Notes: generated by a model not told the origin, from the letters alone. Numbered from the stretch's first letter, positions 556-26,472 are shown. The stretch: DNA of 26,472 nt from a virus (IMGVR_UViG_2630968705_000016); one strand, 5' to 3'. Translations and numbers: made by a program.

Positions 556-820
556 AACTAAAGAAAGTTCATAGGTAGGAGTATGCAATGACATATTGTT
601 TGAAATTTATACTATAAAATTAAACGATTAACAGTTTTATACTATATCAAAGCAGATTCAGGACATTTGAGTAGTGAGATAATCGCTTTATTATAGCATC
701 CATATTATGTCGAACATTGTTGCGAAGCCTCTGTAAGGTTAATGCTTGTTTTTATTATAACTATTTGATATGTTGAGTTTTAGATTGCAATATTAATGTC
801 AGTTTAGCGATAAAGGGGAG

Positions 821-5266: not shown

Positions 5267-5438
5267 ATATGAGCTGTCCAACTTTATGGGGCAGTCCATA
5301 AGTGGGCTTCTATGTCACTAAAGAGCTGCGGCTCCTTTGCGTATCCTTTTTTGTCTCCTCACCGTCTGGTCGGTGTCTTACTTAGACTGCTAACTTCTTG
5401 TTTTTATTGGTGTTGTCCTTACACCGTCCAATCATGAT

Positions 5439-5466
5439 TGGTGGAGCTGGCGGGAGTTGAACCCGC
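5439..5466 (-). other. tmRNA (ssrA) 3'-end fragment, likely att-site remnant
   Basis: Minus strand reads GCGGGTTCAACTCCCGCCAGCTCCACCA, matching the 3' terminal 28 nt of E. coli ssrA as I recall it. Flanking sequence does not continue as ssrA. Confidence 0.6.
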
Positions 5467-5767
5467 AGACACGTCGTATGCAAGAACTTGCTGCGGCTGG
5501 ATGGTGGACTTTCGATAGTGCGAGTATTGAATGATTTCCATCTATTATAGATTTTACCGTATTTCGGCATGAATGAAACTGAATATCCTCCCACCGACCC
5601 TCCATGACTTTACACCACTGTCTCTGGGGCTGCTATGTGCCAGTAGAGGACGTTGCTAGTGTCAGCCTATGTTAATCAACAGGGAGCAGGTCACACTGTC
5701 GTCTCAGAATACCTAGCGCATAGGTCACACGAACTTCCAACTGTATTGCTTGTTTTCGTGGCTAAGC

Positions 5768-6907: not shown

Positions 6908-7301
6908 GGAAATCACTTTCAAATCAGCACACTTAGAGGTTGATTGTGACCGTTATCATAGGCAAAAACAATTCAGTAGGTTGACCAGCCCCCCCCCATA
7001 ACGCAAAATTGCTCGATTTAAGTATGCATTCCAACTTCCGCTCCTCGCTCATAACAGACATTCACTACAGTTATGGTAGAAGGTATGCATGCTGGGTGGG
7101 GAAAGTATGAAGGAAAAGAAGGCTGCTGTGTCGTTTGACATCACTGCAATCTTCTTATTGGTTATGCGGGTCGTAGTGGGACAAAACTGAGACACATAAG
7201 GCCTAGCAATGGCTTGCAAGGCTTTACATGTTTTGATGTGGTGGGACTTGTGAGCGCAGTGTTGATGGGGTAATGCTTTGAATTAGAAGCGGATTCTTAT
7301 A

Positions 7302-7347
7302 ATTCGTAATGCGAAGGTCGTAGGTTCGACTCCTATTATCGGCACCA
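7302..7347 (+). other. Partial tRNA-Thr(CGU) (thrW-like) 3' portion; integrase att core
   Basis: ATTCGTAATGCGAAGGTCGTAGGTTCGACTCCTATTATCGGCACCA matches the anticodon loop through the CCA end of E. coli tRNA-Thr(CGU). The 5' half (GCCGATATAGCTCAG...) is absent upstream. Confidence 0.7.
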
Positions 7348-7512: not shown

Positions 7513-8727
7513 GTGAAACTCAATGCCCGTCAAATAGACACAGCCAAGCCAAAAGAGAAGGCTTACAAGCTGGCCGATGGTGGCGGTTTGTATCTCTTGG
7601 TAAAACCTAATGGAGGTAAATACTGGCGACTTAAATATCGTGTAGCTGGTAAAGAGAAGCTATTGGCACTAGGTGTGTATCCTGAGGTTACTCTAGCCGA
7701 TGCTCGGGCAAAACGAGAAGATGCGAAAAGAGGTATCGCTGGTGGTATCGATCCGATGGAAGCGAAACGAGAGGAAAAGATTGCCCGGGAAACGCAGTTA
7801 AACAACACCTTCAAAGATATTGCCCTTGAGTGGCACAGCAGCAAATTAAAAAAATGGTCTGCTGGTTATGCTTCAGACATCCTCGAAGCCTTCAACAAAG
7901 ATGTGTTCCCTTACATTGGCAAAAAACCAATCGCCGAAATCAAACCACTTGAACTTCTGAATGTGCTGCGGCGCATCGAGGGGCGCGGTGCGACAGAAAA
8001 AGCCAAAAAAGTGAGGCAGCGGTGCGGGGAAGTTTTCCGTTATGCAATAGTCACTGGTCGCGCAGAGTATAACCCTGCACCAGACCTTACTAGCGCGATG
8101 CAAGGCCATGAATCTAATCATTACCCTTTCCTTACGACCAAAGAATTACCTGATTTTTTCAAGGCATTGTCCAGTTACTCAGGAAGCGCATTGGTTGTTA
8201 TGGCGGCTCGTCTACTGATTATCACCGGCTTGCGAACTGGCGAACTACGTGGCGCATTATGGGATGAAATTGATTTCAACAAGGCTATATGGGAGATACC
8301 CGCTTCACGTATGAAAATGCGGCGGCCTCATATTGTGCCATTGTCTGAGCAGGCTCTTTCGCTTATTGGGAAGATTAGAGAAATAACAGGCAATTACCCT
8401 CTTATGTTTCCCGGGCGCAATGATCCAAGGAAAACAATGAGTGAGGCCAGCATAAACCAAGTGTTTAAGCGCATTGGCTACGCTGGACGTGTAACTGGTC
8501 ATGGGTTCCGACACACTATGAGCACGATTTTGCATGAGCAGGGCTATAACACCGCGTGGATAGAAACGCAGCTCGCTCACGTTGATAAGAACTCAATTCG
8601 TGGCACATACAACCATGCGCAATATCTGGATGGACGGCGGGAGATGCTTCAATGGTATGCCGACTATATGGATTCTCTCGAGCATGGCGGAAATGTGGTG
8701 CATATGGTGTTTGAAAAACACGCATGA
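7513..8727 (+). CDS. int: Tyrosine recombinase, P4-type phage integrase
   Basis: 404 aa, GTG start with GGAGG RBS. N-terminal signature (KLNARQIDTAKPKEK...DGGGLYLLVKPNGGKYWRLKYR) typical of P4-family integrases. Catalytic elements GLRTGELR, HGFRHT and RGTYNHA (R, HxxR, Y) present. Confidence 0.93.
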   Translation: MKLNARQIDTAKPKEKAYKLADGGGLYLLVKPNGGKYWRLKYRVAGKEKLLALGVYPEVTLADARAKREDAKRGIAGGIDPMEAKREEKIARETQLNNTFKDIALEWHSSKLKKWSAGYASDILEAFNKDVFPYIGKKPIAEIKPLELLNVLRRIEGRGATEKAKKVRQRCGEVFRYAIVTGRAEYNPAPDLTSAMQGHESNHYPFLTTKELPDFFKALSSYSGSALVVMAARLLIITGLRTGELRGALWDEIDFNKAIWEIPASRMKMRRPHIVPLSEQALSLIGKIREITGNYPLMFPGRNDPRKTMSEASINQVFKRIGYAGRVTGHGFRHTMSTILHEQGYNTAWIETQLAHVDKNSIRGTYNHAQYLDGRREMLQWYADYMDSLEHGGNVVHMVFEKHA

Positions 8728-9154: not shown

Positions 9155-9358
9155 ATGGCTAATTACAATTCATTAATTCGTCTCTCTGAAGTTCAAAGGC
9201 GAACTGGTTATAGCAAAGCATGGATTTATCGTCTTATTAGTCAGGGGAGGTTCCCTAAACAGGTAAAAATTGGAAGTCGGGCAATTGCTTTTGTTGAGTC
9301 TGAAATAGATGAATGGATTGAGAAGTGTATATTAGAATCTAGAGACGAGGTGGCCTGA
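9155..9358 (+). CDS. alpA: AlpA-family transcriptional regulator / excisionase-like protein
   Basis: 67 aa; IRLSEVQRRTGYSKAWIYRLISQGRFPKQVKIG...ESEIDEWI matches the AlpA/Vis HTH pattern. Confidence 0.85.
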   Translation: MANYNSLIRLSEVQRRTGYSKAWIYRLISQGRFPKQVKIGSRAIAFVESEIDEWIEKCILESRDEVA

Positions 9359-10635: not shown

Positions 10636-10807
10636 GCCGACAGGAACACCACAACCTCAAAAACGCTACAAAGATGCCCACGGAGCACTCGTTACTGTCG
10701 AAAGCGTGTCTCACAACCGAGTGACGTTTTATCGCGACGGGTATCAATCGCCATGCGTACAACCGCTGGCGCGTTTCATGAAGGAGTTCGCGGAGGTTAA
10801 CCAATGA
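10628..10807 (+). CDS. Small hypothetical protein (59 aa), possibly DUF4222-like
   Basis: ATG at 10628 overlaps the upstream stop (ATGTTTAA). Sequence MFKPTGTPQPQKRYKDAHGALVTVESVSHNRVTFYRDGYQSPCVQPLARFMKEFAEV. Confidence 0.45.
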   Translation: MFKPTGTPQPQKRYKDAHGALVTVESVSHNRVTFYRDGYQSPCVQPLARFMKEFAEVNQ

Positions 10808-11241
10808 TACCCATCCAGAAGAAGACATTTTCACTGGCTGGTATGTCGCCAAAATCCAGAAATATGACGGCAAAGTCAGGCATTAATACAGCAGATACAA
10901 GCAAAGTTTATCATTTGCTGGTGGCCGGAACGGATGCCTTAACCATACCAGAAATCTCGGGCGATGATATTAGCCTTGAGAAGGTCAGCGGCTGCGCCAG
11001 AAAATTTCTGGTCGTAGATGATGTCTTCCGCTCGTGTAGTGACTCCACAAAAACATTCGTCCACGCGCGTGACGTTAACGAAATGAGCGCGATGTACTGT
11101 GCTTCTGGTTCTTCCAATAGTGAGTTTTCGGAGTCCATAAAAAAGAGCTTGCCGTTATGCGGCAACACGGTTTATGGTTATAAGGCACCTCATAAAACGG
11201 GTGCCGGGTTTCGCAGCCCGGAAATGTACGAGGCGACACAT

Positions 11242-11263
11242 GACGCGCCGAGCGTCTTTTTTT
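11242..11263 (+). terminator. Rho-independent terminator-like hairpin plus T7 run
   Basis: GACGC-GCCGA-GCGTC hairpin (11242-11256) followed by TTTTTTT (11257-11263). Lies inside the annotated 355-aa ORF 10804-11871. Confidence 0.5.
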
Positions 11264-11465
11264 GTGCCGTTAGCCAGACTCACACTTTTTTCAGTGATGT
11301 GGTTATAATCCGCGTCGCTTGCAAAATTATGGTGGGCTGGACAGGGCAGCCGAAAGGCTGGCCGGTTTCCTTGTACGCCGGTACTGCGAACTCTGTTCAG
11401 TCCACCACCAGCGAGTTTCGCAGCTCCGGTGGTGGGAAGAATTCCCAGTACAAGGAGGCTGCCAC

Positions 11466-11660
11466 ATGCTGGCTACTACCCCTACCCAAAAACCGCAATT
11501 TATCTGGATTATCGCCGCAGTTCGCCGCGATTGCCCGACAATTACCGCCAAAATTCATCATATTGCTGCCGAGTCTGAACGCGATGCTCGCCGTTCTCTG
11601 GTGCGCGATCACGTCTGCTTTTTTGCTGGTCGTATCCGCATGGAGGTGGCACATGATTAA
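11466..11660 (+). CDS. Small hypothetical protein (64 aa)
   Basis: ATG preceded by AAGGAGG RBS; codon usage (ctg, gcc, cgc) is much more gene-like than the overlapping frame of the long ORF. MLATTPTQKPQFIWIIAAVRRDCPTITAKIHH... Confidence 0.55.
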   Translation: MLATTPTQKPQFIWIIAAVRRDCPTITAKIHHIAAESERDARRSLVRDHVCFFAGRIRMEVAHD

Positions 11661-11871
11661 AACCTACGATGTGCATATGGATCCCCTCGAACGCACAAGC
11701 CAGATCATCACACTGACAGAAGTGATTAACGACATTCTGGTGAGCAACTCTCCCTCACGAGACGAAAGACTGAAGGCGTTACTCGCGATATTGGATCTCG
11801 CCGTTCGTGACGTTCATTTCCTGCTGGAAGGTGGCGAAATGCCAGGAAAAACGGGGGCAACCAATGAATAA
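11655..11871 (+). CDS. Small hypothetical protein (72 aa)
   Basis: Internal ATG of the long ORF with GGAGGTGG RBS; overlaps the upstream stop (ATGATTAA). MIKTYDVHMDPLERTSQIITLTEVINDIL... Confidence 0.5.
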
Positions 11872-13483: not shown

Positions 13484-13847
13484 AAATGCAGAAATGGCGC
13501 TTAGCTCCGCAATCGGAGAGCAGGTGGCAAAGATTGCTGGTGCTGTGTGGATTCATAACCTTCATTCTACTGGTGAAGAGAAAATGGCAATTCAGACGCC
13601 AGAGGGACGCATCATTACTACATCTCTGAAGCCGTCAGATGTTTGTGATCTGATTTGCGCATTCATGTACCCAGCAATGAGGACTGCCCACGGCGATAAG
13701 TGGAAACTTGCGACAACCGCTGAATTTGATATGTGGCTAAACAATGATGGCATGCTGACTGATTACGGAATAACCAAGTGGCAGATGCTGGTTAGCCATA
13801 TCGCAAACGCTATAGACCACGTGGGGTACGGTGATGCGAAACATTGA
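13476..13847 (+). CDS. Hypothetical protein (123 aa)
   Basis: ORF with GGGAGG RBS upstream; 3' end overlaps the primase start. Confidence 0.6.
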   Translation: MRENAEMALSSAIGEQVAKIAGAVWIHNLHSTGEEKMAIQTPEGRIITTSLKPSDVCDLICAFMYPAMRTAHGDKWKLATTAEFDMWLNNDGMLTDYGITKWQMLVSHIANAIDHVGYGDAKH

Positions 13848-16590
13848 TCTTATCCGTCAGGTTATCAGTGCGTCTGAAAACAACTGGCCTCATGTGCTGG
13901 GCTGCCTGAACATAAATGTCCCTGACTCTCCGCGCCGTCATGCTCCCTGCCCTGCATGTGGGGGCAAAGATCGATTCCGGTTCGATGACAACGGGCGCGG
14001 TAGCTTCATCTGTAATCAGTGCGGCGCTGGTGATGGGCTGGATTTAATTAAACGCGTAAATAACTGCGACACAACAGAGGCGGCGCTTCTTGCCGCTGAT
14101 GTTCTGGGTATTGATTACCGGACAACGGAAACACCAGAAGCCACCAGCCAGAAACGGGAACAACTGGAAACCGAGCGCCAGCGACGCGAACAGGAGCGCC
14201 TGAAAAGGGCAGAGAAGGACGAACAACAAAGACGGGATACGTTTTCCCGTCAGTTTGATGACATGCGCAGAAAGGCTGTAAACGGCAAATCTGATTATCT
14301 GGTTGCGAAAGTGGTAGGTGATTTTACATTCCCCGTGTTGCCCGATGGATCTCTGTTGCTGGCGCTGGTGGATAAATCCGGCGCAGTCACAGCAGCACAG
14401 ACTATTACCTCACATGGTGAAAAAAGACTCCTGACAGGTTCAGCAAAGCGGGGGGCATATCACGCCATAAACGCACCAGAAACAACACAGAGCATCTTAA
14501 TCGCAGAAGGGCTGGCAACGGCATTATCTGCCCATTTAATTCGTCCAGAGGCGCTGACAGTGGCGGCGATTGATGCCGGGAACCTGTTATATGTCGCCCA
14601 GGTACTGCGGGATAAATATCCTTCAGCACAAATCATCATTGCTGCGGATAACGACCACAGCGAAGGAAGACAAAACACGGGGAGAATAGCAGCAGAAAAA
14701 GCAGCTTTATCTGTTTCTGGATGGGTGGCATTACCCCCGACAGATCACAAAGCAGACTGGAATGATTACCACCAAAAACACGGCATTAAATGCGCCACAG
14801 AAGCGTTCAATAAGTCAATGTACCAACCACAGGGTAATGGCGTGAAACAGGAGCCACAGACCATTGAGGGAAGCGATTTTAAGGTTATGGATACCGACCC
14901 ACTGAAACCAAGAATAGAAAGCCGCGAGGATGGTATTTATTGGGTATCTCCGAGAGCTGACAGCCAGAGTGGAGAAATCATCAATAACGAAAGCTGGTTA
15001 TGTTCTCCGTTAAGCGTTATCGGTACTGGCAGAGACGATAAAGACCAGTATCTCATTCTTCGCTGGCTGTCGTTTGGTTCTGAAACGCCGACAACCGCTG
15101 CCATTCCACTGGCTGATATTGGTGAACGTGAAGGATGGCGCACACTTAAAGCTGGTGGGGTAAATGTCACGACCAAAAGCAGCCTCAGAGCAATACTGGC
15201 AGACTGGCTACAACGCAGTGGCTCTCGTGAATTGTGGCGTGTTGCTCATGCCACTGGCTGGCAATGCGGAGCGTACATCATGCCTGATGGGGAAATCATC
15301 GGAACACCTGAAAATCCTGTGCTGTTCAGCGGGAGAAGCTCAGCCGCAGCCGGATATACCGTCTCAGGGAGCGCGAAAAGCTGGCGTGATAACGTGGCGC
15401 GTCTGGCCTTTGGTAACTATTCAATGATGACCGGGATCGGCGCAGCACTGGCAGCGCCATTGATTGGGCTGGTGGGCGCTGACGGGTTCGGCATTCATTT
15501 CTATGAGCAGTCGAGCGCAGGTAAGACCACCACGGCAAACGTGGCGAGCAGCTTATACGGCAACCCTGATTTACTGCGGCTGACGTGGTACGGAACCGCG
15601 CTGGGGCTGGCAAATGAGGCCGCCGCCCACAATGACGGACTAATGCCGCTTGATGAAGTTGGTCAGGGCGCTGATCCTGTCAGCGTTTCACAGTCTGCCT
15701 ATGCGTTATTTAACGGTGTAGGGAAACTGCAAGGCGCTAAAGATGGTGGAAACCGGGATCTAAAACGTTGGCGTACAGTGGCAATCAGCACCGGAGAAAT
15801 GGATTTAGAAACATTTATCGCTACTTCCGGGCGAAAAACCAAAGCCGGGCAACTGGTGCGACTGCTGAATATTCCGTTGAGTAAAGCAGTACGCTTTCAC
15901 GATTACCAGAACGGAAAACAGCACGCAGACGCACTGAAAGACGCTTACCAGCATCACCACGGCGCGTCCGGGCGTGAGTGGATTAAATGGCTGGCAGACC
16001 ACCAGCAACAGGCTATTAAAACCGTTCGTGATTGCGAAAGCAGATGGAGAAGCCTGATCCCATCCGATTATGGTGAGCAGGTTCACCGTGTAGCCGCGCG
16101 ATTTGCCATTCTGGAGGCCGCATTGTTGTTAGGCGAGGTTGTAACAGGCTGGGATGCTCAGACATGCCGTGATGCGATACAGCACAGCTATAACGCATGG
16201 TTGCGTGAGTTCGGCACAGGTAACAAAGAGCATCAGCAGATTATTGAACAAACGGAGGCATTTCTTAATGCCTATGGGCTTAGCCGTTTTGCACCATTTT
16301 CATACAGCCCGGCAGATTTGCCCATCAAAGATTTAGCCGGATACCGTCAGCGTGGAGAACATGACGAAAGCCCAATGATTTTCTACACATTCCCGGCCAC
16401 ATTTGAAAAGGAGATCGCATGTGGTTTCAACGCAAAACAGTTTGCTGAAGTGTTGAAAAAAGCCGGGATGCTAACCCCACCAAACAGCGGTCGTGGATAC
16501 CAAAGAAAATCACCACGTATTCAGGGACGACAAATAAACGTTTATGTACTCAATTACCAGCCAGGAGATTATAACTCATCTGAAGAATGA
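13831..16590 (+). CDS. Primase-helicase (P4 alpha-like: zinc ribbon + Toprim primase + P-loop helicase)
   Basis: 919 aa. CPACGG...FICNQCG zinc-binding motif; Toprim-like AEGLATA and IIIAADNDHSEG (DxD); Walker A SSAGKTTT and Walker B-like LMPLDEV. Start could be the GTG at 13831 or the ATG at 13834. Confidence 0.9.
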   Translation: MMRNIDLIRQVISASENNWPHVLGCLNINVPDSPRRHAPCPACGGKDRFRFDDNGRGSFICNQCGAGDGLDLIKRVNNCDTTEAALLAADVLGIDYRTTETPEATSQKREQLETERQRREQERLKRAEKDEQQRRDTFSRQFDDMRRKAVNGKSDYLVAKVVGDFTFPVLPDGSLLLALVDKSGAVTAAQTITSHGEKRLLTGSAKRGAYHAINAPETTQSILIAEGLATALSAHLIRPEALTVAAIDAGNLLYVAQVLRDKYPSAQIIIAADNDHSEGRQNTGRIAAEKAALSVSGWVALPPTDHKADWNDYHQKHGIKCATEAFNKSMYQPQGNGVKQEPQTIEGSDFKVMDTDPLKPRIESREDGIYWVSPRADSQSGEIINNESWLCSPLSVIGTGRDDKDQYLILRWLSFGSETPTTAAIPLADIGEREGWRTLKAGGVNVTTKSSLRAILADWLQRSGSRELWRVAHATGWQCGAYIMPDGEIIGTPENPVLFSGRSSAAAGYTVSGSAKSWRDNVARLAFGNYSMMTGIGAALAAPLIGLVGADGFGIHFYEQSSAGKTTTANVASSLYGNPDLLRLTWYGTALGLANEAAAHNDGLMPLDEVGQGADPVSVSQSAYALFNGVGKLQGAKDGGNRDLKRWRTVAISTGEMDLETFIATSGRKTKAGQLVRLLNIPLSKAVRFHDYQNGKQHADALKDAYQHHHGASGREWIKWLADHQQQAIKTVRDCESRWRSLIPSDYGEQVHRVAARFAILEAALLLGEVVTGWDAQTCRDAIQHSYNAWLREFGTGNKEHQQIIEQTEAFLNAYGLSRFAPFSYSPADLPIKDLAGYRQRGEHDESPMIFYTFPATFEKEIACGFNAKQFAEVLKKAGMLTPPNSGRGYQRKSPRIQGRQINVYVLNYQPGDYNSSEE

Positions 16591-16615
16591 GCTTCTTCAT
16601 GTGCGTAGAAAAGGT

Positions 16616-16726
16616 GTTGGTTCAGTTGGTTCAGTTGGTTCAATTTGTAAAGAGTATTGTTTTATAATGATTTTATTCTTTTTATTGAACCAACACTGAA
16701 CCAACAACACGGTATTTTGAACCAAC
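16616..16726. repeat. Iteron cluster 1 (putative replication origin)
   Basis: Three perfect tandem GTTGGTTCA 9-mers (16616-16642), an AT-rich spacer, then three TGAACCAAC inverted copies (16686-16694, 16697-16705, 16718-16726). Begins 26 bp after the primase stop. Confidence 0.75.
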
Positions 16727-17046
16727 ACAATGTGACTGAATTGATGCGCACAACACCTGGCTGGCATCAGAGAGTGTTTTACGAGACTTTCGTAAAATCC
16801 TGTGTACAAGGGCGTGACGTTTTTGAAAGTGAGCACTACGAAATTTTCGTAGTTCAAAAAACAGCCTCTGAGAAGTTGTTATGCCTGTTCAGCAAACCAT
16901 CCGCATAGCTGATCGCGAATCAAATTACCAATGGAGCCAGAAGCAAGGGCAGAACTGAAAAGCGCCTGCCGTGAAGAGTAATGCGACACCATAAATATAG
17001 TTTTTAGAGTCCATAAAAAACCTGTCAAAACCTGACACACAGAACG

Positions 17047-17080
17047 ATGCCACCAGCTACTGAGCGGTGGCATTTTTTTG
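17047..17080 (+). terminator. Rho-independent terminator
   Basis: Perfect 8-bp stem ATGCCACC/GGTGGCAT with an 11-nt loop, followed by TTTTTTT (17074-17080). Confidence 0.7.
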
Positions 17081-17174
17081 TGCTATTTGTTTCATATTTT
17101 GCAATTACGATGATGAATATTGCGATTTGTGAAACTATAATAACTGTTGTTTTATACAGTTCTAAGGGGGCGTT

Positions 17175-17336
17175 ATGGCTATTTCAGTAAAGCCGGTATT
17201 GATAAGTGAGAAGCAAATGGAAGCGATAAAGAAAATTCAGGAAGAGCAGCGTAAAAAATCAGGAATTGGAGTAGCGCCAACTCTGCATGAAATTGCACGA
17301 GGGTTAATAGATAAGGCGCTGGCAGGCTGTATGTGA
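17175..17336 (+). CDS. Small hypothetical protein (53 aa), possible DNA-binding regulator
   Basis: Strong RBS AAGGGGG 5 nt upstream of ATG; MAISVKPVLISEKQMEAIKKIQEEQRKK... Not on the ORF track because it is under 60 aa. Confidence 0.5.
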   Translation: MAISVKPVLISEKQMEAIKKIQEEQRKKSGIGVAPTLHEIARGLIDKALAGCM

Positions 17337-17352
17337 AAATGGATGGCATCGC

Positions 17353-17814
17353 ATGGAACTAAAATTTATTGATAACCCTGTGCGATTACAGGCCTTTCTT
17401 AACGAGCCAGGCAATACCGAAAATATTGTTGAGCCGGGGCACACGTACTACATCAAGCCTGATGCGGTATATCTCGGCATCTACGAAGGATTAGTGCTGG
17501 CTGGCGTTCATGAAGTGCGTAACTTCTGGCATAGCGTTGTTGAATGCCATGCGGTGTACGACCCCGGATTCCGTGGTGAATATGCACTGCAAGGGCATCG
17601 ATTATTCTGCAAATGGCTTCTCGAAAACTCACCATTCCTTAACAGCATTACCATGGTTCCTGACACCACCAAATACGGACGGGCAATTATCCGTTTGCTT
17701 GGCGCTACCCGTGTTGGTCACCTTGATGATGCTTATATCAGATGTGGTAAACCCGTCGGCGTAACGCTTTATCAGTTAACTCGGCAACAATATAAGGAAT
17801 TCAGCGAATGTTAA
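17353..17814 (+). CDS. Hypothetical protein (153 aa), first gene of the ejection-like cassette
   Basis: ORF coupled to the downstream gene (ATGTTAA overlap); no domain recognised. Confidence 0.7.
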   Translation: MELKFIDNPVRLQAFLNEPGNTENIVEPGHTYYIKPDAVYLGIYEGLVLAGVHEVRNFWHSVVECHAVYDPGFRGEYALQGHRLFCKWLLENSPFLNSITMVPDTTKYGRAIIRLLGATRVGHLDDAYIRCGKPVGVTLYQLTRQQYKEFSEC

Positions 17815-18485
17815 TTACCCACATAGCTCATAAACATCTCAATCGTGCCGTATACGAAAAAGGCGGTGATGGTGGTGCCTCTAAAGCTCAGGCGAAGGCC
17901 CAGCAGCAGGCAATTGATTTGCAGCGCGAGCAGTGGAATACGGTGATGAATAATCTCAAGCCGTATGCAGAAGTCGGATTGCCTGCTTTACAACAACTAC
18001 AAGGACTGATGACTCTGGAAGGGCAGAATAAAGCCGCGAATGATTTCTTTGGTTCTGGTTTATATAAAACACAGGCAGATCAGGCCCGTTATCAGAACCT
18101 TGTCTCAGCAGAAGCTACCGGGGGGCTTGGCTCAACAGCTACCAGTAACCAGTTATCTTCCATTGCGCCCATGCTTTATAACAATTGGCTCAGTGGGCAA
18201 ATGCAAAATTATGGAAACCTGCTAAATGTCGGGATGAATGCGGCATCAGGGCAGGCAACGGCAGGGCAAAACTACGCCAATAATACCGGACAACTCTTGC
18301 AGGGGCTTGGCGCTATTCGTGCAGGTCAGGCGCAGCAGCCATCCAGTCTTGCGCGTGGTATTGGTGGGGCAGCATCAGGCGCTTTAGCGGGTGCGCAACT
18401 TGGTTCCGTTGTTCCTGGAATAGGAACTGCGGCCGGCGCTATTGGTGGTGGGCTTATTGGTCTTGTTGGGGGGCTTGGATTCTAA
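17808..18485 (+). CDS. Hypothetical protein with glycine-zipper-like C-terminus (225 aa), internal-virion/ejection-like
   Basis: Q/A/N/G-rich; C-terminal GIGGAASGALAGAQLGSVVPGIGTAAGAIGGGLIGLVGGLGF suggests a membrane-inserting glycine zipper. Coupled to flanking genes. Confidence 0.75.
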   Translation: MLITHIAHKHLNRAVYEKGGDGGASKAQAKAQQQAIDLQREQWNTVMNNLKPYAEVGLPALQQLQGLMTLEGQNKAANDFFGSGLYKTQADQARYQNLVSAEATGGLGSTATSNQLSSIAPMLYNNWLSGQMQNYGNLLNVGMNAASGQATAGQNYANNTGQLLQGLGAIRAGQAQQPSSLARGIGGAASGALAGAQLGSVVPGIGTAAGAIGGGLIGLVGGLGF

Positions 18486-19804
18486 TGGCGACATGGCAAC
18501 TTGGCGGGCTGCCTAGCATGGCACCGCAAAATGATAATGCTCCTCGTTCTTCCGTTCCTCAGCCTGTGCAGTATCAGCAGCAGCCAAACGTAGGTTTAAT
18601 GGCGCTACAGGGGCTAAGAGGCGTTGCTGAGATTAATCAGCAGGCGCAAATTTCCCAGCAGTTAAAAGAATATCAGGCACGGTTGGGTAGTGCGGTAGCT
18701 AATAATGATCGTGTTGGCGTGCAGAAGTTAATGGCCCAGTATCCCCAGTTTATGGCTGATTCTCAAAAACAGATGGGATTCATTGATGCTGAGCAAAATC
18801 GACAGACCGCTGACGCTGCCATGAATCTGCGTCTTGCGTCACAAACTGGAGATCCACTGACCATGCAGAAGGCCATTCAGCAGGCAAATCCAGTATTACA
18901 GCGATTTGGTCTTCCTGCTGAAGAGGTTTATCAGTCTTGGCAGAATGACCCACAGGAATTCAACAGAATCACTGACCTCATCCACCTCCATGCTGATCCA
19001 AATAGTTACTTTAGTGTTCAAGAGAAGCAGCAAGGGCAGAGCATTGCACAGCAGAACGCAGATACATCCGCATATAATGCTCAGGTTAATGCGGAACAGG
19101 GTAATCGACGTCTCGATATGGAGCAGTTCAAAGTCCTATCCGATAACCAACTACGCACGAGAGAAATGGTTCTGAAAGCACGACTTGGACGTGCTCAAAA
19201 TGACATCGAGAGAGACAAGCTCAATGCTGAACTGAGCAAGATACAGCAGGCGAAAGTGGAGAAGATGAACGATAAAATTAATACTGTTGCAGGTAACATC
19301 GACTCCTTGAACTCTGCGCTTGAAGTGGGTCATGAACTGGCGGGAATTGTAGGGAAACATCCTTCGGCCGTTACCCGCTCGCAGAACTATAACCCCCTGA
19401 CGCTGGGGTTTGGATTCCTTCCTGATGTAGCAGAAGACACACGAAGCCTACGCGCCAAAGCTGATGAATACAACCTAAAGGTTATTCTGCCTAGCCTCAA
19501 AGGGACTTTTGGCTCTAACCCAACCGAAGGGGAAAGGGCTGCCCTTATGCAATCTCAAAATGGCATTAAGTCAGCAACCAGCAATGAGGCATTTTTGCGA
19601 GAGTTGAATAAAGCGCAGGACGTAATTATTCGAATGCAGAAACGACAGATTGCCGGGCTCGGTATTCCTGTAACCAAATCTAAGGACGAAGAAACTGATA
19701 CCAAAATGCTGTTGCAGGATCCTTCACTGGTTAAGGATTATGTGACCGCACATGGCTATCTGCCGGAAAGTTACTATCAGGCAAAACTTAAGGGATGGCA
19801 ATGA
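18485..19804 (+). CDS. Hypothetical Q-rich protein (439 aa), internal-virion/ejection-like
   Basis: Start overlaps the upstream stop (TAATG); low-complexity Q/N/A-rich composition typical of phage internal core proteins. Confidence 0.8.
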   Translation: MATWQLGGLPSMAPQNDNAPRSSVPQPVQYQQQPNVGLMALQGLRGVAEINQQAQISQQLKEYQARLGSAVANNDRVGVQKLMAQYPQFMADSQKQMGFIDAEQNRQTADAAMNLRLASQTGDPLTMQKAIQQANPVLQRFGLPAEEVYQSWQNDPQEFNRITDLIHLHADPNSYFSVQEKQQGQSIAQQNADTSAYNAQVNAEQGNRRLDMEQFKVLSDNQLRTREMVLKARLGRAQNDIERDKLNAELSKIQQAKVEKMNDKINTVAGNIDSLNSALEVGHELAGIVGKHPSAVTRSQNYNPLTLGFGFLPDVAEDTRSLRAKADEYNLKVILPSLKGTFGSNPTEGERAALMQSQNGIKSATSNEAFLRELNKAQDVIIRMQKRQIAGLGIPVTKSKDEETDTKMLLQDPSLVKDYVTAHGYLPESYYQAKLKGWQ

Positions 19805-22521
19805 TGGCACAACTGACAGAAAAACAGAAAGCCTATTCCCGTCATCTCGATGAAAAATATGGTTTCCCATCAGGGACGATGGAAACATTAGTTGGCAATG
19901 AATCTAGTGGTAACGGAAGTGCCGAGTCACCGAAAGGAGCTAGAGGATTTGCTCAACTGATGCCCTCAGTAATGAGTGATGCTGGTTATCGTGGAACAGA
20001 TCCGCGCTCACTGCCATTTGAAAAGCAAATGGATATCGCAGCAAACCATCTCAATAAAGGAATGAAGCGATTTGGTGATATAGGTATGGCATTGGCTGGG
20101 TATAATTCTGGCTATGCTCGTATTAATGCCGTCAGAAACGGTAAATCTACACTGCCAGATGAAACGGCTAATTACGTAAGTAAATTTGCAGATGCCGGAA
20201 TAATCCCTGATGACAGTGAAATCTTGCAGTTTGCACAAACCAGTCAACATCGCAATCTTCAGCAGCCTGACTACTCAGAGCTTGATAAAGAAATCTCTCA
20301 GGTGGGAGATATTTCTGCATGGGAAGCAAAACGTCAGCAATTTAAGAACATAGAAGCAGGACTACCAACAGCCAGTTCATGGGAGCAGAAAAGAGCTCAG
20401 TTTCTCGCCGATGAAAATGCCGGGGAACCGCAGCAGCAAGTAGCCAAGTCTAACCTTAATCCTGAGATGGAATATCTTTCGCCAGGACTGAAAGCTGCGC
20501 CAGAGCAGATGGCCAGAGGGATTGCTAATATACCGTTTGATGTAATGGACGCAGGCGTGGGGGTAGTCAATGCGGCGCAATCAGCCGGAGCATGGGCAGC
20601 TCAGAAGCTTGGTGTGGGTGATGGCACATACACGCCCATATCACCTGTCTTTCGCCCAGTAGACCAACCTACAGATCCATACGCGCAGGCTGGTGAGCAG
20701 CTAGCACCTTACCTTATTACAGGATTAGGTGTAGGAAAGGCAGCTACCGCAGCTTCTTCAGTTGCCAACGCTCCACGTGCTGAACGTGCGGCCACAAAGG
20801 TGGCTAGTATGTTGGCAGAAAACCTGCCAGGTACATTGGTGAACGCCCAAAAGAACGGGCAGATCAGCCCAGAAGACCTAGCAAAAGAGACAGGTATTGG
20901 CCTAGCAGGATCGCTAGGAGCACGCGCTTTAATAAAGAGCGGACAGACAGCCAGTGACGTAATGCGAGATGTATTGCGGAGTAATACAAATCAATCAGGC
21001 CATGTGTTAGGGGCAGCAAATACTCTGGAAACCGCCAATGATGTATCGAAAGCAGCGCGTTCTGCCGTAGGCCGAGAGCATATCGCATCGCAGGCATCAA
21101 ACGTCAGAGATGATGTCGCTAAGGCGGCGAAAATCACTGGTATTAATATCAACACCCTGACGCCTGGAATGCGCTCAGGTAGTCGTGGAATTGCCCAAGC
21201 AGAAGGTGTTCTGGCATCAACTCCTGGGAATGTTCAGGATGCTCACCTTACGGCCTTCAATGAAATATCCTCAAAGTTGAATAAGCAGTTGTCTGATTTC
21301 GGTGCTGAGTCTGGAAGCGCATCAGAAAAAAGCGCAGCAATTAAAGAGCGCATCATCGCGAGCCTCAGTGATATGAAAACAGCAGAGAATATGGCATGGG
21401 CAGAACTGCGAAGCACGATGCCACGCGAAAGGATGAAAATGAGTAATGGGATGGCTGTCGTCCAAGCAGAAAAAGCAGCCAATGTTCCACTCAGCCCGGA
21501 GATGAAACAGTTTCAGGCTGCCAACAACCAAGGTGGCGGCATAACCTTCGACGGGATGAAGGCATGGCGTGCTAAGTTTGCTGATGCTGAACAAGCAAAC
21601 ACCCGGGCAGGTAAGGCCAATGCCGCCCGGATTGCCGGAGAAATGCGCAGAGCTATCACTGATGACATGCGCATCATGGCTGAAAAAGGAAACTTCCTCA
21701 CAGAATGGCAGAAAGCTAACGATCTCTCTAAAAGTTACATTATCGCCAAACAAAATGCCGAATCTGTTTTTGGTCGAGATCTCGCATCAGACGCTATGGT
21801 AAGAAAAGGTGCCGATACGCTTAAGGCATCCGCAAACACTGGAACGGGAGCTTTTCACCGTCTTATCTCCGCGCTGCCGGAAGCAGAACGCCAACCTGCA
21901 ATAGCATCTATTCTTCAGCATGCTGTGGCGCAGGGAGAGAAGGGAGGAATCGGTGAAGAGTCAGGTATCCAGTATTTTGCCAAGCTCATGACCCAGCAGA
22001 ATGTAAACGCCATCAGTCGTCATGCGCCAGATCTCGGTAGAATGATGAAAGAGTTCGGTGTACTCGCTAAAGCCAGTACCAGACCGCAGCGATACGTAGA
22101 GCGCACGGGAAGAACAACTGAGGCTCTCAAAACGCTCGATTCAGGCCTTCCAAAGATCGTCGGCGTGATTATGAACGGTGTTCAACAGTCAGGTGCGATC
22201 GCTGGAGGCTTTGGCGGTGGTGTAATTGGTTCGATTAGTGGTTTGGTTGCTGGTGGCGCGCTAAGAAATGCTGTGGCTAAGATTGGGGCGACAAGAAGTG
22301 GTCGATATGCGATAGAGAAAGCCGTTCAGGAAGCTACAAAAGCAGTGCGCGCAGGGGCATCACCAGCAGCGATCGCCGCAGCAGAGAAACGATTTTCGGC
22401 CAATAAAATTGCCATGAAAGCAATTCGTGATGCCGTTGGGGCTGAAGAATTCGTGAAACTGACAAGGGCCGGGATTGTAGCTACCCTCAGTGGCATGAAA
22501 GATGTTAGCGAATGGGAATAG
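19795..22521 (+). CDS. Large protein with N-terminal lytic transglycosylase (SLT) domain (908 aa), T7 gp16-like architecture
   Basis: N-terminal motifs ESSGN (catalytic Glu context), GFAQLMP and AGYNSGYA match SLT family signatures. The remainder is long and A/G/Q/S-rich with a glycine-rich segment (GAIAGGFGGGVIGSISGLVAGG) near the C-terminus. Confidence 0.88.
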   Translation: MAMMAQLTEKQKAYSRHLDEKYGFPSGTMETLVGNESSGNGSAESPKGARGFAQLMPSVMSDAGYRGTDPRSLPFEKQMDIAANHLNKGMKRFGDIGMALAGYNSGYARINAVRNGKSTLPDETANYVSKFADAGIIPDDSEILQFAQTSQHRNLQQPDYSELDKEISQVGDISAWEAKRQQFKNIEAGLPTASSWEQKRAQFLADENAGEPQQQVAKSNLNPEMEYLSPGLKAAPEQMARGIANIPFDVMDAGVGVVNAAQSAGAWAAQKLGVGDGTYTPISPVFRPVDQPTDPYAQAGEQLAPYLITGLGVGKAATAASSVANAPRAERAATKVASMLAENLPGTLVNAQKNGQISPEDLAKETGIGLAGSLGARALIKSGQTASDVMRDVLRSNTNQSGHVLGAANTLETANDVSKAARSAVGREHIASQASNVRDDVAKAAKITGININTLTPGMRSGSRGIAQAEGVLASTPGNVQDAHLTAFNEISSKLNKQLSDFGAESGSASEKSAAIKERIIASLSDMKTAENMAWAELRSTMPRERMKMSNGMAVVQAEKAANVPLSPEMKQFQAANNQGGGITFDGMKAWRAKFADAEQANTRAGKANAARIAGEMRRAITDDMRIMAEKGNFLTEWQKANDLSKSYIIAKQNAESVFGRDLASDAMVRKGADTLKASANTGTGAFHRLISALPEAERQPAIASILQHAVAQGEKGGIGEESGIQYFAKLMTQQNVNAISRHAPDLGRMMKEFGVLAKASTRPQRYVERTGRTTEALKTLDSGLPKIVGVIMNGVQQSGAIAGGFGGGVIGSISGLVAGGALRNAVAKIGATRSGRYAIEKAVQEATKAVRAGASPAAIAAAEKRFSANKIAMKAIRDAVGAEEFVKLTRAGIVATLSGMKDVSEWE

Positions 22522-22671
22522 ACGCTCTAACTAACAAAACCATAATAGCCAAGGACGGCATACTGATATTGAGCCAACTATCAAAATTCCATATCACATT
22601 ACGAGCCTGTGGCTTACATTCGCTTACAGTGATGATAATTTATAACCACGCAATTCTTAGGTGAGATTATC

Positions 22672-23370
22672 ATGATTAAAAATCTTCTTTTAATATTATC
22701 CCTGTCATTATTGGCTGGATGCGTACAAAAACCGTTAGTAACGGTCAATGCTTTATCTTCCGGGCAATCTGTCGGTAAGAAGTTCTTGATCATCCCCGCA
22801 AGCCAAGAACTTTGGAACACCAAACAGATTGAATACACTCAAATAGCTACGGTAGTAGCCGCCAGTTTATCAAGCCAAGGATATACACAAGTTAAAGATG
22901 AAAAATTGGCTGACCAGGTAATTCTCTTGAACTTTTTGAGAAGTGGGGCCATTTCAAATACTCGTAATGTAACCATCCCAATATACGGGCAAACTGGTGT
23001 GAGCTCAGCAACAACGTACGGAAACTCGAACACCACGTTCAATAGTTATGGTGGTGGCTACGGTACAGCTAATACCACTGGAACGGCAACAACAGTTTAT
23101 ACGCCTACTTATGGAATTACTGGCGCGTATAACACAACTGTGACGGACACGTTCTACGGCGCAGGGGTGATACTCCAGTCGTTTGATGCCAAGGCTTATC
23201 TCAATAATCGGCAGATTAATATGTTATGGAAAGTTGGTAGCTCAGTCGTCTCGCAACAGTCTGATGGAATTGCTGATTACAAAGGGTTGGCGAGAATAGC
23301 CGCTAGCTATGCCGGGAAAAATACAGAAGGTGATATAACTTTTAATGTTGACCCTAAAGCACCAAATTAA
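22672..23370 (+). CDS. Putative lipoprotein (232 aa)
   Basis: Signal peptide with lipobox LLAG|C; AGGTGAG RBS; T/G/N/Y-rich central region; lower GC than neighbours. Confidence 0.8.
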   Translation: MIKNLLLILSLSLLAGCVQKPLVTVNALSSGQSVGKKFLIIPASQELWNTKQIEYTQIATVVAASLSSQGYTQVKDEKLADQVILLNFLRSGAISNTRNVTIPIYGQTGVSSATTYGNSNTTFNSYGGGYGTANTTGTATTVYTPTYGITGAYNTTVTDTFYGAGVILQSFDAKAYLNNRQINMLWKVGSSVVSQQSDGIADYKGLARIAASYAGKNTEGDITFNVDPKAPN

Positions 23371-23377
23371 CTAATAA

Positions 23378-23427
23378 GCCCGGTACGCCGGGCATTCATG
23401 CCCCTATTATTCATGAATCGCTTTTTC
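23378..23427 (+). terminator. Terminator-like tandem hairpins downstream of the lipoprotein gene
   Basis: GCCCGG-TACG-CCGGGC hairpin (23378-23393), then ATTCATG...CATGAAT hairpin (23394-23418), followed by CGCTTTTTC. Confidence 0.4.
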
Positions 23428-23584
23428 TGGAAGGTATGCGACAAACGTTAAGTGACATTGCCTACACATTCGGGGCTCAAATCCGCTCCCAGTTGATGGG
23501 GCCGTTACAGTACGCGCATATCCGCTTTATGTGAAACAGGAAGATTTTTCTGATATCACTGCCACAGCAAAACACCAATTTCGA

Positions 23585-23600
23585 GACAAGTACGCGCGCG
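23585..23600. repeat. GACAAGTACGCGCGCG motif, copy 1
   Basis: Exact 16-mer with an alternating (CG) tract; a degenerate copy (GACCAGTACGCACACG) follows at about 23638-23653. Confidence 0.6.
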
Positions 23601-23870
23601 AGGGGTATCAGTTGCAAAATTTTTTGCAACTGCGTCCGACCAGTACGCACACGATGGCGGGGGATACCATAAAAGTGTTCTCTACATGAGACAGAGTGGT
23701 GGTGATGTGTTGATTATCGGCGTATATGCGCACAGGACGCGCTATGACAATGTTTTATGCGGGTACACCAATCACATGTATCTGACGTGATAAATCGCGT
23801 TACATGACATCTCATGTTGTGCTGGTGGTTATCACGACGTTCTGAATCTGGCCTTTGCCTGATATTTTGC

Positions 23871-23886
23871 GACAAGTACGCGCGCG
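23871..23886. repeat. GACAAGTACGCGCGCG motif, copy 2
   Basis: Exact 16-mer in the context ATTTTGCGACAAGTACGCGCGCGTAGCATC. Confidence 0.6.
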
Positions 23887-24671: not shown

Positions 24672-24773
24672 ATCAGTGAGTAATATCCATACAGTATATC
24701 ACTGTATAACACTGTTATACGCTCAAATATCAGCCAGAAAATAACGGGCCAATCACAAAGCTATCGCTGTGTT

Positions 24774-24894
24774 GTTGGTTCAGAGCTGGGCTGTGTTGGT
24801 TCAAAATGAGTTGATGTTGGTTCAATATTTTAGAAAAAACATAATAAAAACAACAATCTTTACAAATTGAACCAACTGAACCAACTGAACCAAC
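24774..24894. repeat. Iteron cluster 2 (inverted copy of cluster 1)
   Basis: GTTGGTTCA at 24774-24782, 24795-24803 and 24816-24824; AT-rich spacer; three tandem TGAACCAAC at 24868-24894. Its reverse complement aligns with cluster 1, with about 45 bp identical at the tandem end. Confidence 0.75.
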
Positions 24895-24930
24895 ACCTTT
24901 TTGCTTATCTATATAATCTGAGAGGCAGAA

Positions 24931-25212
24931 ATGATAAGGGACAGGAAAGCTGAAGAGCTGGAGTCAAAAGGGCTATACCGGAGAGCTGCCGCACGATGGA
25001 TGGAAGTCATGCTGTTATGCAGCGAGGACGATGATCGGGAATGGATAAAGCGCCGCCGTGAAACGTGTCTGGAGAACGTGAAGCGCCCGCCCGTGAAGGT
25101 TGAGGAATTTGGCGACCTGCATAAAGCTGTTACCGAAACGCAACACCGCATGGGGATAGCGCAACCGAACGGTAACGCCTTCCGGTTAAATGGCGGTAAG
25201 AGGCAAAGGTAG
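24931..25212 (+). CDS. PerC-family transcriptional activator-like protein (93 aa)
   Basis: GAGAGG RBS; MIRDRKAEELESKGLYRRAAARWMEVM... matches my recollection of the PerC/Pch N-terminal signature. Confidence 0.7.
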   Translation: MIRDRKAEELESKGLYRRAAARWMEVMLLCSEDDDREWIKRRRETCLENVKRPPVKVEEFGDLHKAVTETQHRMGIAQPNGNAFRLNGGKRQR

Positions 25213-25260
25213 ACCACCAGAGGGAAATCATCCTCTGGCTGGCGGTTTCTGGTATTTCGG

Positions 25261-25278
25261 GACAAGTACGCGCGCGCG
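25261..25278. repeat. GACAAGTACGCGCGCG motif, copy 3 (one extra CG unit)
   Basis: GACAAGTACGCGCGCGCG in the context TATTTCGGGACAAGTACGCGCGCGCGTAGCACC, sharing about 30 bp of context with copy 2. Confidence 0.6.
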
Positions 25279-25695: not shown

Positions 25696-26016
25696 ATTAC
25701 CTTTATTCACCTTTATATATTCGAACAACAAAACCTCTCGCAGGTCTCGCCAATAAAGGGATATAGCAGTAACTATGACCGCCGAATGGCAAAGCTACGA
25801 TGCAAGTCGCTGGTTTCCAAACTTGAGGTTTCCAGGACGGTTTCAACCAAATTGCGGATTATCAGCCAAACGCACCGGGTATCTTGCGCGGTGGATGGTG
25901 AGCCATCACGCAGAATCTTTAAATGGCATTTTACGATGGGCAATACCCGTGGTTATATGCGATTATTAACGGTAGTGGACAGTTATAGACGAAAACATAC
26001 GGCAGGAGATTGGATA

Positions 26017-26472
26017 ATGGCAGTTACAACCCTTAACAGCGTAGCGGATTACCTGCTTTGCTTTGCTCAAGAGCATGGGGATGTTATGACGCCGCTGAAA
26101 CTGCAAAAAATGGTGTTCTATGCTGATGCTTGGTTCATGGCGCTGAATGATGGCGAAGAACTGGTTGCTGACAAGTTTGAAGCATGGGTACATGGCCCTG
26201 TAGCCAGAGATTTGTATACCAGATTTGCAGATTACAAATGGCGCTCAATAGACGAAGAGATTGCCTGCCCTGAGTTACCTGCGAATGTGTCAAAGCATCT
26301 AAAGGAAATCTATGAGGTATTTGGCGGTTATACAGCTTATGAGCTGGAGCAGATGACGCACCAAGAAAAGCCGTGGCTGGAGGCCCGTGAAGGGGTTCCA
26401 TCAGATGCGCCGTGCAAGAATGTTATTGATAAAAGTGTAACGGCTGAGTTTTATCGTTCGATGGCTTCCTAA
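26017..26472 (+). CDS. Panacea/DUF4065-domain protein (SocA-like phage-associated antitoxin family), 151 aa
   Basis: AGGAGA RBS 8 nt upstream of ATG at 26017; LKLQKMVFYADAWFMALNDGEELVADKFEAWVHGPV resembles the DUF4065 core. The longer track ORF from 25786 has an implausible N-terminal extension. Confidence 0.7.
   Translation: MAVTTLNSVADYLLCFAQEHGDVMTPLKLQKMVFYADAWFMALNDGEELVADKFEAWVHGPVARDLYTRFADYKWRSIDEEIACPELPANVSKHLKEIYEVFGGYTAYELEQMTHQEKPWLEAREGVPSDAPCKNVIDKSVTAEFYRSMAS

Follow-up and report, generated by a model that had tools for sequence, protein, structure and literature searches.

The subject of this study is a viral DNA sequence of 26,472 nucleotides (IMGVR_UViG_2630968705_000016), which was analysed over its whole length and is referred to as the window, and within it the gene cassette at positions 17353-22521. 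This cassette comprises four open reading frames (ORFs) of 153, 225, 439 and 908 amino acids (aa), all of which are encoded on the plus strand and overlap each other via their stop and start codons. The coordinates and sizes of these genes had been given in a first-pass annotation made from the sequence alone, and our ORF analysis returned them unchanged. The placement of the cassette behind an origin of replication is supported as well, because iterons with an AT-rich stretch (16609-16735) are located just upstream, behind the primase gene. The four genes form an intact P22-type ejection-protein module, in which a muralytic SLT domain is fused to gp16. The module is carried by a phage-inducible chromosomal island (PICI) of the EcCIMP1 family, a satellite of P22-like podophages (Lederbergvirus). 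The positions of all features are summarized in Table 1.

Genes of the ejection-protein cassette

The four proteins are assigned to the families of gp14, gp7, gp20 and gp16 of phage P22, and the gene order 14-7-20-16 is P22's own. BLASTP comparisons to the respective P22 proteins gave E values of 2e-7, 4e-53, 2e-14 and 9e-17. The resemblance to the P22 module which the first-pass annotation had derived from sizes and order is therefore borne out by significant similarity for all four families, and the profile comparison gave matches beyond the SLT domain for all four proteins. Judged by these similarities, gp7, gp20 and gp16 are the counterparts of the three ejected proteins of P22; gp14 is annotated as a head-morphogenesis or assembly factor.

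The degree of similarity to the proteins of the P22-like phage Kapi1 differs strongly between the four genes. It amounts to 84% identity for gp14 and 58% for gp7 (56% to P22 gp7), and to 26% for gp20, in the N-terminal part only, and 25% for gp16. The alignments of the cassette gp20 to phage gp20 proteins are confined to the N-terminal part of approximately 300 aa (about 26% identity), and the BLASTP match to P22 gp20 spans only the N-terminal 187 aa. Close relatives of the cassette gp16 are annotated with PF26808. A sequence search of the PDB with gp14, gp7, gp20 and gp16 returned zero matches.

The N-terminal lytic transglycosylase domain which had been noted in the 908-aa protein was recovered as an SLT domain. 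The likeness to T7 gp16 which had been based on it extends no further than this domain, as the match to phrog_342 (T7 gp16) is restricted to residues 9-217. Fusions of SLT and gp16 are also found in genuine P22-like phages (Dewey and Huey) and in Klebsiella and Serratia prophages (L011 and L013). Glycine-rich, glycine-zipper-like C-terminal segments can be read in the translations of gp7 and gp16, which for the 225-aa protein is in line with the earlier description. The window was also described as free of capsid, terminase and tail genes, and ORF and family scans of the window found none of them. In the island, scans with Pfam and PHROGs and tblastn with the Kapi1 structural proteins did not reveal any capsid, tail or lysis genes.

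The island and its relation to EcCIMP1

From position 7302 onward the window is 100% identical to the genome of E. coli APEC E19025, in which the island reaches from a tRNA-Thr gene (thrW, next to proA) to a remnant of lysR beside paoD. The window has the att core TCCTATTATC at 7331. In locus L001 it is present as direct repeats at both island ends (9979 and 30697), in the 3' end of thrW, so that the island measures 20,718 bp. Its last 1.6 kb on the right are not included in the window.

The genes of the island follow the order P4-family integrase, AlpA, a 143-aa protein, AntA, DUF4222, Ash, small ORFs, primase and iteron origin. Behind the origin follow a 53-aa ORF, the four ejection genes, a lipoprotein, PerC and a protein with a Panacea domain. 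An integrase gene at one end, alpA, a pri/rep gene with adjacent ori and a common direction of the genes are characteristic for PICIs and are all present. No members of the sid, psu, delta or eps/cnr families were found among the island ORFs scanned. The first-pass annotation had spoken of a P4-type island; this is correct with respect to the integrase and the primase, which are P4-like, but the element itself is a PICI and not a P4-like satellite.

The element itself is already known. It shares with EcCIMP1 of E. coli MP1 the thrW site between proA and yagU, the att core, the gene order and many identical protein accessions, and the four cassette proteins are 98-100% identical. In MP1 the AlpA protein WP_000035054.1 sits where EcCIMP1_003, the master activator of EcCIMP1, is described. 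The two islands differ in their right-arm cargo and in that the island of the window forms a tandem with a lambdoid prophage in front of it. Excision and circularisation of EcCIMP1 were observed exclusively upon induction of Kapi1, a P22-like phage (Pick, Stadel & Raivio, ISME J 2025; PMC11773190). Excision requires int and alpA and transfer requires alpA; transduction by Kapi1 amounts to about 4.8e3 per ml (PMC11773190). The titres of Kapi1 after induction are unchanged by EcCIMP1, which adds to superinfection immunity against Kapi1, only in lysogens (PMC11773190). The function of the PerC-family regulator has also been studied for EcCIMP1 (PMC11773190). The authors termed the cassette genes only "DNA transfer/DUF2824-like" and stated that structural genes are absent; no annotation of the cassette is contained in the EcCIMP1 supplements (PMC11773190). 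The main text of the MP1 transcriptome paper is silent on which EcCIMP1 genes respond to Kapi1.

Conservation and selection

As gp20 is the most divergent of the cassette proteins, it was used as probe for a survey in which the genomic surroundings of its relatives were inspected. All gp20 relatives of at least 60% identity lie in the island backbone and are not accompanied by portal, coat, gp4, gp10, gp26 or tailspike genes. They originate from E. coli, Salmonella enterica, Serratia marcescens, Buttiauxella izardii and several metagenome and IMG/VR contigs. Locus L014, with a gp20 of 49% identity, is an island too and is devoid of the same structural genes. The remaining gp20 loci, of at most 51% identity, are all complete P22-like prophages (from Klebsiella, Serratia and Providencia, plus IMG/VR contigs). 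A scan of GTDB representatives with the gp20 alignment gave two loci, which are too few for a taxonomic census.

The layout of integrase, alpA, primase, ori, putative ribbon-helix-helix (RHH) gene and ejection cassette with all four genes is conserved in E. coli, Salmonella, Serratia and Buttiauxella. The survey of homologous islands that had been proposed thus finds the architecture in several genera, and the cassette is not confined to complete prophages. Between island copies, the ratios of nonsynonymous to synonymous substitutions (dN/dS) are 0.066 for gp20, 0.071 for gp16 and 0.079 for gp7 (with dS of 1.1-2.7), which indicates that the cassette genes are under strong purifying selection. 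Among 5426 complete E. coli genomes, 328 have the junction of primase, ori, 53-aa gene and gp14, and 72 contain the full cassette of the window with its gp20-gp16 allele. The first-pass annotation had left the choice between a satellite with its own ejection proteins and a chimeric prophage remnant. The membership in a known PICI family, the recurrent layout without capsid genes and the strong purifying selection favour the former.

Allele exchange and the neighbouring envelope gene

Not all islands carry the complete set of genes. In L003 the cassette consists of gp7, gp20 and gp16 and is devoid of gp14, and in L014 of gp20 and gp16 alone. The minimal and constant set is thus gp20 plus gp16. 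For P22 it was reported that gp16 and gp20 must share their source and that gp7 is interchangeable (PMC10461980). P22 in which gp16 alone or gp20 alone is foreign assembles particles which form no plaques (PMC10461980). The cassette of L014 fits this same-source requirement.

A second allele of the pair encodes a gp20 of 473 aa and a gp16 of 701 aa without SLT domain. The islands with this allele are 98.7% identical to the window up to codon 54 of gp20. In L079 the second gp20-gp16 pair is followed on the opposite strand by a gene for a 139-aa polytopic membrane protein, and in L115 the opposite-strand neighbour gene encodes a 204-aa protein. The allele is also found at thrW in strain A34. It shows about 91% DNA identity to the respective genes of a CUS-3-like prophage in E. 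coli S88. Moreover, gp14 and the 5' end of gp7 form a tract of 81-91% DNA identity to Kapi1. The islands exchange matched gp20-gp16 pairs, together with the adjoining gene for an envelope protein, with contemporary P22-like phages.

Ejection proteins (E proteins) of 21-50% identity assemble into P22 virions and function there (Leavitt et al., PMC10461980). They enter procapsids by scaffold-dependent binding of their N-terminal parts (PMC8402733), a route with which the restriction of gp20 conservation to the N-terminal part in our data may be compared. Mutations that escape the exclusion protein SieA map to gp16 and gp20 (PMC10461980).

In the window, the gene behind gp16 encodes a predicted lipoprotein of 232 aa. 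A promoter-like site lies upstream and a terminator-like hairpin downstream of this gene. The lipoprotein is kept in the E. coli and Salmonella islands and in L003, and it is swapped along with the gp20-gp16 allele. Scans with Pfam, PHROGs and PADLOC gave no family match. A likeness to TraT/DUF4136 stayed below the threshold (E of about 0.06-0.09). A relationship to SieA was likewise dismissed: there is no BLASTP match to P22 SieA at E<=1, the protein is a predicted lipoprotein and not polytopic, and only the position is common to both. As the source of the superinfection immunity reported for EcCIMP1, the 232-aa lipoprotein is a candidate.

Origin, promoter and the 53-aa gene

In the gap between primase and cassette (16590-17353) a P22-like late promoter or qut site was looked for; origin, terminator and an island-specific promoter are found there instead. 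The promoter region contains a perfect TATAAT and two TTGCnn boxes which are 21 bp apart. Hairpin, promoter and 53-aa gene are kept in five island lineages with diverged flanks. The 53-aa gene is present in every island lineage and in none of the phages. From this arrangement, the cassette appears to form a separate transcription unit. The single-sequence AlphaFold model of the 53-aa protein (pLDDT 78) comprises an unstructured N-terminus followed by two helices, and a Foldseek search with this model gave no significant PDB match. The helix-helix pattern suggests that the protein may be a ribbon-helix-helix repressor.

A second iteron cluster is an inverted copy of the putative ori, with which it shares the inverted-repeat pairs I1, I2 and I7. 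The two inverted clusters are 8.1 kb apart and bracket the ejection cassette. The same inverted pair was seen in four other island lineages (Salmonella, Serratia and two metagenome lineages).

Motifs resembling pac sites

Three types of short motifs surfaced while we were checking for DNA common to the island and Kapi1. They are nearly all on the plus strand and outside of supported coding regions. Each of the reference phages holds only its own motif type; in Buttiauxella all three types are arranged in tandem within 90 bp.

Type A corresponds to the experimentally defined pac site of P22, in which AAGATTTATCTG is the mutationally defined 12-bp core; recognition of the island copies by a terminase is putative. 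Island L003 contains at 15171 an exact copy (22/22) of the P22 pac site with matching flank. Arrays of 3-8 related type A copies were detected in other islands, with eight in Salmonella and six in Buttiauxella, by a scan which is circular, as its position weight matrix (PWM) was built from these same copies.

Type B is found in most island lineages, and the Serratia islands have a variant form. In IMG/VR, 62 of 80 classified loci with the type B 18-mer are Sf6-type terS genes, 15 are PICI-type islands and three lie elsewhere. The position of type C equals the column of the TerS alignment which type B occupies in Kapi1. Its 19-mer core has 120 loci in IMG/VR, 101 in terS genes and 19 in islands, with none elsewhere. 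The pac site of Sf6 is reportedly located in the part of gene 1 that encodes the DNA-binding domain of TerS. A TerS-like domain in the Ash ORF at the type C motif at 11123 was considered and dismissed, because the similarity stops at the motif of 8 aa or 22 nt. Further motif arrays were noticed in L003 (14961-15192) and L018 (3183-3270).

Position and distribution of the motifs suggest that they are copies of pac sites for three TerS specificities, namely those of P22, Sf6/Kapi1 and CUS-3, with types B and C being putative pac sites by analogy of placement. Such copies would explain the absence of a terminase and also the inference of several helpers by the authors of the EcCIMP1 study. Two copies of the island amount to 41.4 kb. 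A headful of the P22 type is 104% of a genome of roughly 40-42 kb (PMC8402733), so that two island copies correspond roughly to one headful.

Sibling islands with a tape measure protein

Sibling islands have their backbone in common with the island of the window, namely the 143-aa protein, Ash, the primase, PerC and a 53-aa gene homologue, and do not contain E genes. Their slot behind the 53-aa gene holds an ORF of 109 aa, followed by the gene for a tape measure protein of about 930 aa (PF20155, E 2.5e-51; phrog_1107, E 1.6e-156). No other tail genes were found in them. In an IMG/VR scan with the tape measure protein, all 29 loci of at least 69% identity carry island markers and lie on contigs of at most 30 kb, apart from one of 57 kb. 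All 49 loci of at most 54% identity are without island markers, save one integrase match, and lie mostly on contigs of 35-50 kb; these are presumably siphophages. The nearest true phages are temperate siphophages of Klebsiella. The tape-measure module is absent from complete E. coli genomes.

Tape measure proteins leave the virion first, help to form the DNA conduit and are targeted by exclusion proteins. Their role for siphophages corresponds to that of the E proteins for P22. That the same slot takes up either E proteins or a tape measure protein is an argument for DNA delivery being what selection acts on. We tentatively suggest, with some doubt, a widespread superfamily of enterobacterial PICIs with one RHH-headed slot for a DNA-delivery conduit matched to the morphotype of the helper, plus pac arrays of multiple specificity. 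If this is true, podophage helpers would go along with the gp14-7-20-16 slot and siphophage helpers with the tape measure slot. The satellites would borrow capsids, tails and terminase from several helpers, yet would set their own way of crossing the envelope, and they would escape from exclusion that is aimed at E proteins or tape measure proteins.

Proposed mechanism and alternative explanations

We consider it reasonably probable that the island, as a satellite of P22-like phages, relies on pac mimicry for its packaging and places an ejectosome of its own in the capsids of the helper. The copies of helper packaging sites imply that it seems to borrow the particle of the helper while bringing a DNA-delivery channel of its own. 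Upon induction of a helper, AlpA would activate the island, with subsequent excision, as has been shown in MP1, and replication presumably starts from the iteron origin. The TerS of the helper would then recognise island concatemers at the pac-site copies of the three types and initiate headful packaging. The cassette, headed by the small putative RHH gene, would be transcribed from its own conserved promoter, and its products may enter helper-made procapsids via the scaffold-dependent route, which is tolerant of very divergent E proteins, to serve as conduit. The resulting particles would pass the DNA through a conduit built of the satellite's own matched gp20-gp16 pair. The benefit at entry could be independence from the E-protein type of the helper or escape from exclusion directed at gp20 and gp16, such as that by SieA.

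Several points weigh against this mechanism. The helper already has working E proteins, and the need for a second set is not obvious. The presence of the island E proteins in virions is a prediction, and the frequency at which Kapi1 transduces EcCIMP1 is low (PMC11773190). The assignment of the Sf6- and CUS-3-type motifs to pac is derived from position and distribution and not from a mapped site. As one of the island alleles nearly equals that of a contemporary phage, divergence from the helper is no general rule. Escape through divergence is not assured either, because SieA excludes several very different types of E proteins (PMC10461980). Finally, defence cargo is known to accumulate downstream of pri in PICIs (PMC11364771). 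The documentation of this region as an immune hotspot would fit the cassette being cargo for interference. The foreign gp20 and gp16 would act as a dominant-negative decoy in the progeny of an infecting P22-like phage and cause non-infectious particles, so that the population is protected in the manner of Tai systems, and the tape measure gene would do likewise in the sibling islands. The non-infectious P22 particles that result from mismatched gp16 and gp20 (PMC10461980) and the contribution of EcCIMP1 to immunity against Kapi1 (PMC11773190) agree with such a decoy. However, the unaffected titres of Kapi1 after induction (PMC11773190) are difficult to reconcile with it. Neither a complete co-adapted gp14-7-20-16 set with intact SLT domain nor alleles nearly identical to those of resident phages are necessary for a decoy, and a scan with PADLOC v2 gave no match for the cassette. 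We therefore regard this explanation as unlikely.

It is still more doubtful that the E homologues and the adjacent lipoprotein reside in the envelope of the uninduced host and disturb the conduit assembly of incoming phages there. The role of EcCIMP1 in the superinfection immunity of Kapi1 lysogens (PMC11773190), the cassette's own promoter with its small regulator and the gene for an envelope protein, which always follows gp16 at the position of sieA in P22, would be compatible with such an exclusion at entry. But the lipoprotein or membrane protein alone could account for the immunity, which is the simpler explanation, and there is no sensible role for gp14 and the SLT domain. An unregulated SLT-gp16 together with glycine-zipper proteins might even harm the envelope, and the immunity effect is confined to lysogens (PMC11773190). 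Very improbable is the origin as a chimeric remnant, in which late genes of a decayed P22-like prophage became fused to a P4-type island. The P22-like gene order and the tract of high identity to Kapi1 in gp14 and gp7 would be compatible with such a fusion. It is contradicted by the same junction across genera, by intact ORFs of up to 943 aa, by dN/dS values of about 0.07, by the island-specific gene and conserved promoter at the head of the cassette, and by the experimental mobility of the element (PMC11773190). As island layout, selection and genome frequency all show conservation, we reject the remnant.

Comparison with known systems

The cassette resembles the module of Lederbergvirus (P22, Sf6, CUS-3, HK620 and Kapi1) in its four families, their order, the overlapping genes and the envelope gene behind gp16. 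It differs in that it follows primase and origin, the place of which is taken by the tail-needle gene in the phages, and in having its own promoter and a small island-specific gene. Furthermore, gp20 and gp16 of the island share only about 25% identity with their counterparts in the known helper, and its gp16 carries the SLT domain, as do some phages. With T7 gp14, gp15 and gp16, which form the T7 core, the module has in common an ejected protein with N-terminal lytic transglycosylase and an analogous role as trans-envelope conduit; there is no sequence similarity beyond the SLT domain.

PICIs of the EcCICFT073 and EcCIEDL933 types divert packaging by means of Rpp or bring capsid and packaging proteins of their own. 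With these Gram-negative PICIs, i.e. EcCICFT073 and the capsid-forming PICIs (cf-PICIs) such as EcCIEDL933, the island shares the order int-alpA-pri/rep-ori, a PerC-like gene and AlpA-dependent induction by a helper. In contrast to them, the family of the window encodes neither Rpp nor capsid and packaging proteins of its own, and has ejection proteins and apparent copies of pac sites instead. P4, with the cos site of P2, and SaPIbov5, with the cos site of its helper, are packaged via the site of the helper and not by a terminase of their own. Apparent copies of helper packaging sites in place of a terminase are thus common to these satellites and our island. The sites of the island would be pac and not cos, they occur in arrays and in three specificity types, and homologues of sid, psu and delta are absent.

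What the known satellites hijack is, to our knowledge, the size of the capsid, the specificity of packaging or the capsid as a whole, and none is known to supply proteins for delivery of DNA across the envelope. Literature searches turned up neither a description of a satellite equipped with ejection proteins or with a tape measure protein nor a later paper that extends the account of the EcCIMP1 cassette. In the literature searched, the identity of the EcCIMP1 'packaging-module' genes with a full P22 ejection module is apparently undescribed, and so are the cross-genus conservation, the allele swaps with phages, the tape-measure sibling and the pac arrays of three types. If the proposed mechanism is true, the entry step would be a new point of conflict and cooperation between satellite and helper. 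The mechanism would also explain the spread, without a terminase of their own, of islands of the EcCIMP1 type, which are found in about 6% of the complete E. coli genomes as well as in Salmonella and Serratia. The pac motifs and E-protein alleles bear on the transduction of islands with virulence regulators and defence genes, and the pac arrays would indicate candidate pac sites for terminases of the Sf6 and CUS-3 types.

Further features of the window

Table 1. Features of the window, with the corresponding stretches of related islands. Positions refer to the window unless a locus is named.
Feature	Position	Strand	Evidence and remarks
Island left end, duplicated 3' part of tRNA-Thr (thrW)	7302-7347	+	att core TCCTATTATC at 7331-7340
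P4-family tyrosine integrase	7513-8727	+	Arm-DNA-bind_3, Phage_int_M and Phage_integrase domains
AlpA-family regulator	9155-9358	+	PF05930, E 7e-20; WP_000035054.1, identical protein in MP1
Type A motif, further copy	starts 11058	-	detected with PWM
Type C motif AGTTTTCGGAGTCCATAAAAAA	11123-11144; 16999-17020 (AGTTTTTAGAGTCCATAAAAAA)	+	22-mer exact in terS of CUS-3 and S88 prophage; strand given for 16999-17020
Primase/replicase (Zn-ribbon, Toprim, DUF927)	13831-16590	+	phrog_1139, E 4e-178
Iteron cluster with AT-rich spacer (putative ori)	16609-16735		read in sequence, after primase gene
Type C motif, degenerate copy	16842-16863		
Terminator-like hairpin (17050-17080), then promoter region (17100-17145)	17050-17145	+	sequence reading
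53-aa island-specific gene heading the cassette	17175-17336	+	putative ribbon-helix-helix regulator
gp14 homologue (DUF2824), 153 aa	17353-17814	+	DUF2824, E 1.5e-61; phrog_651
gp7 ejection protein homologue, 225 aa	17808-18485	+	PF25688 P22_gp7, E 6.6e-73
gp20 ejection protein homologue, 439 aa	18485-19804	+	PF16928 Inj_translocase, E 3.7e-22; phrog_917/2534
gp16 ejection protein homologue, 908 aa	19795-22521	+	phrog_770 'DNA transfer protein', residues 189-864, E 4e-121
SLT lytic transglycosylase domain of gp16, N-terminal	~19843-20151	+	residues 17-119, E 1.1e-12
232-aa predicted lipoprotein	22672-23370	+	lipobox LLAGC; position of sieA in P22 (there opposite strand)
Type A motif GAAGATTTATCTGAAGTCGTTA = P22 pac site			source P22 gene 3, annotated pac
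Type A motif, copy	23540-23561	+	11/12 of P22 pac core AAGATTTATCTG, at 23541-23552
Type B motif TTTCGCGACAAGTACGCG, core TTTCGnGACAAGTACGCG	23573-23600, 23859-23886, 25249-25276	+	exact in terS of Kapi1 and Sf6; strand given for first copy
Second iteron cluster, inverted copy of ori	24769-24901		just upstream of perC
PerC-family regulator	24931-25212	+	annotation
Second gp20-gp16 allele	L079 6272-10236; L115 10773-14932		corresponds to window 18645-23477
Tape measure stretch of sibling island	L045 1-3040	-	
Tape measure stretch of sibling island	L240 9400-13439		

The 'Ash family' ORF of 355 aa (10804-11871) looks over-extended. Its Ash domain covers residues 124-232, and the rest resembles non-coding sequence. 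The upstream part of this ORF holds the pac-like motifs of type A (minus strand, from 11058) and type C (11123).

The Panacea (SocA-like antitoxin) domain protein at 25786-26472 runs off the end of the window; in L001 it is followed by an ORF of 144 aa. The two are probably a toxin-antitoxin or defence pair in the right arm of the island.

Positions 1-7301 are the end of a lambdoid prophage which is inserted in tandem to the left of the island. The island is here not directly beside thrW; the flanks in strain 32-4 suggest that the lambdoid prophage lies between the tRNA gene and the island, and the junction of the two elements is marked by the duplicated tRNA 3' end (7302-7347). A low-GC region at the end of this prophage (821-3105) encodes DzbA and DzbB of the Dazbog anti-phage system (PADLOC E values of 1.6e-54 and 1.3e-7), and an invertase gene (1-555) adjoins this pair.

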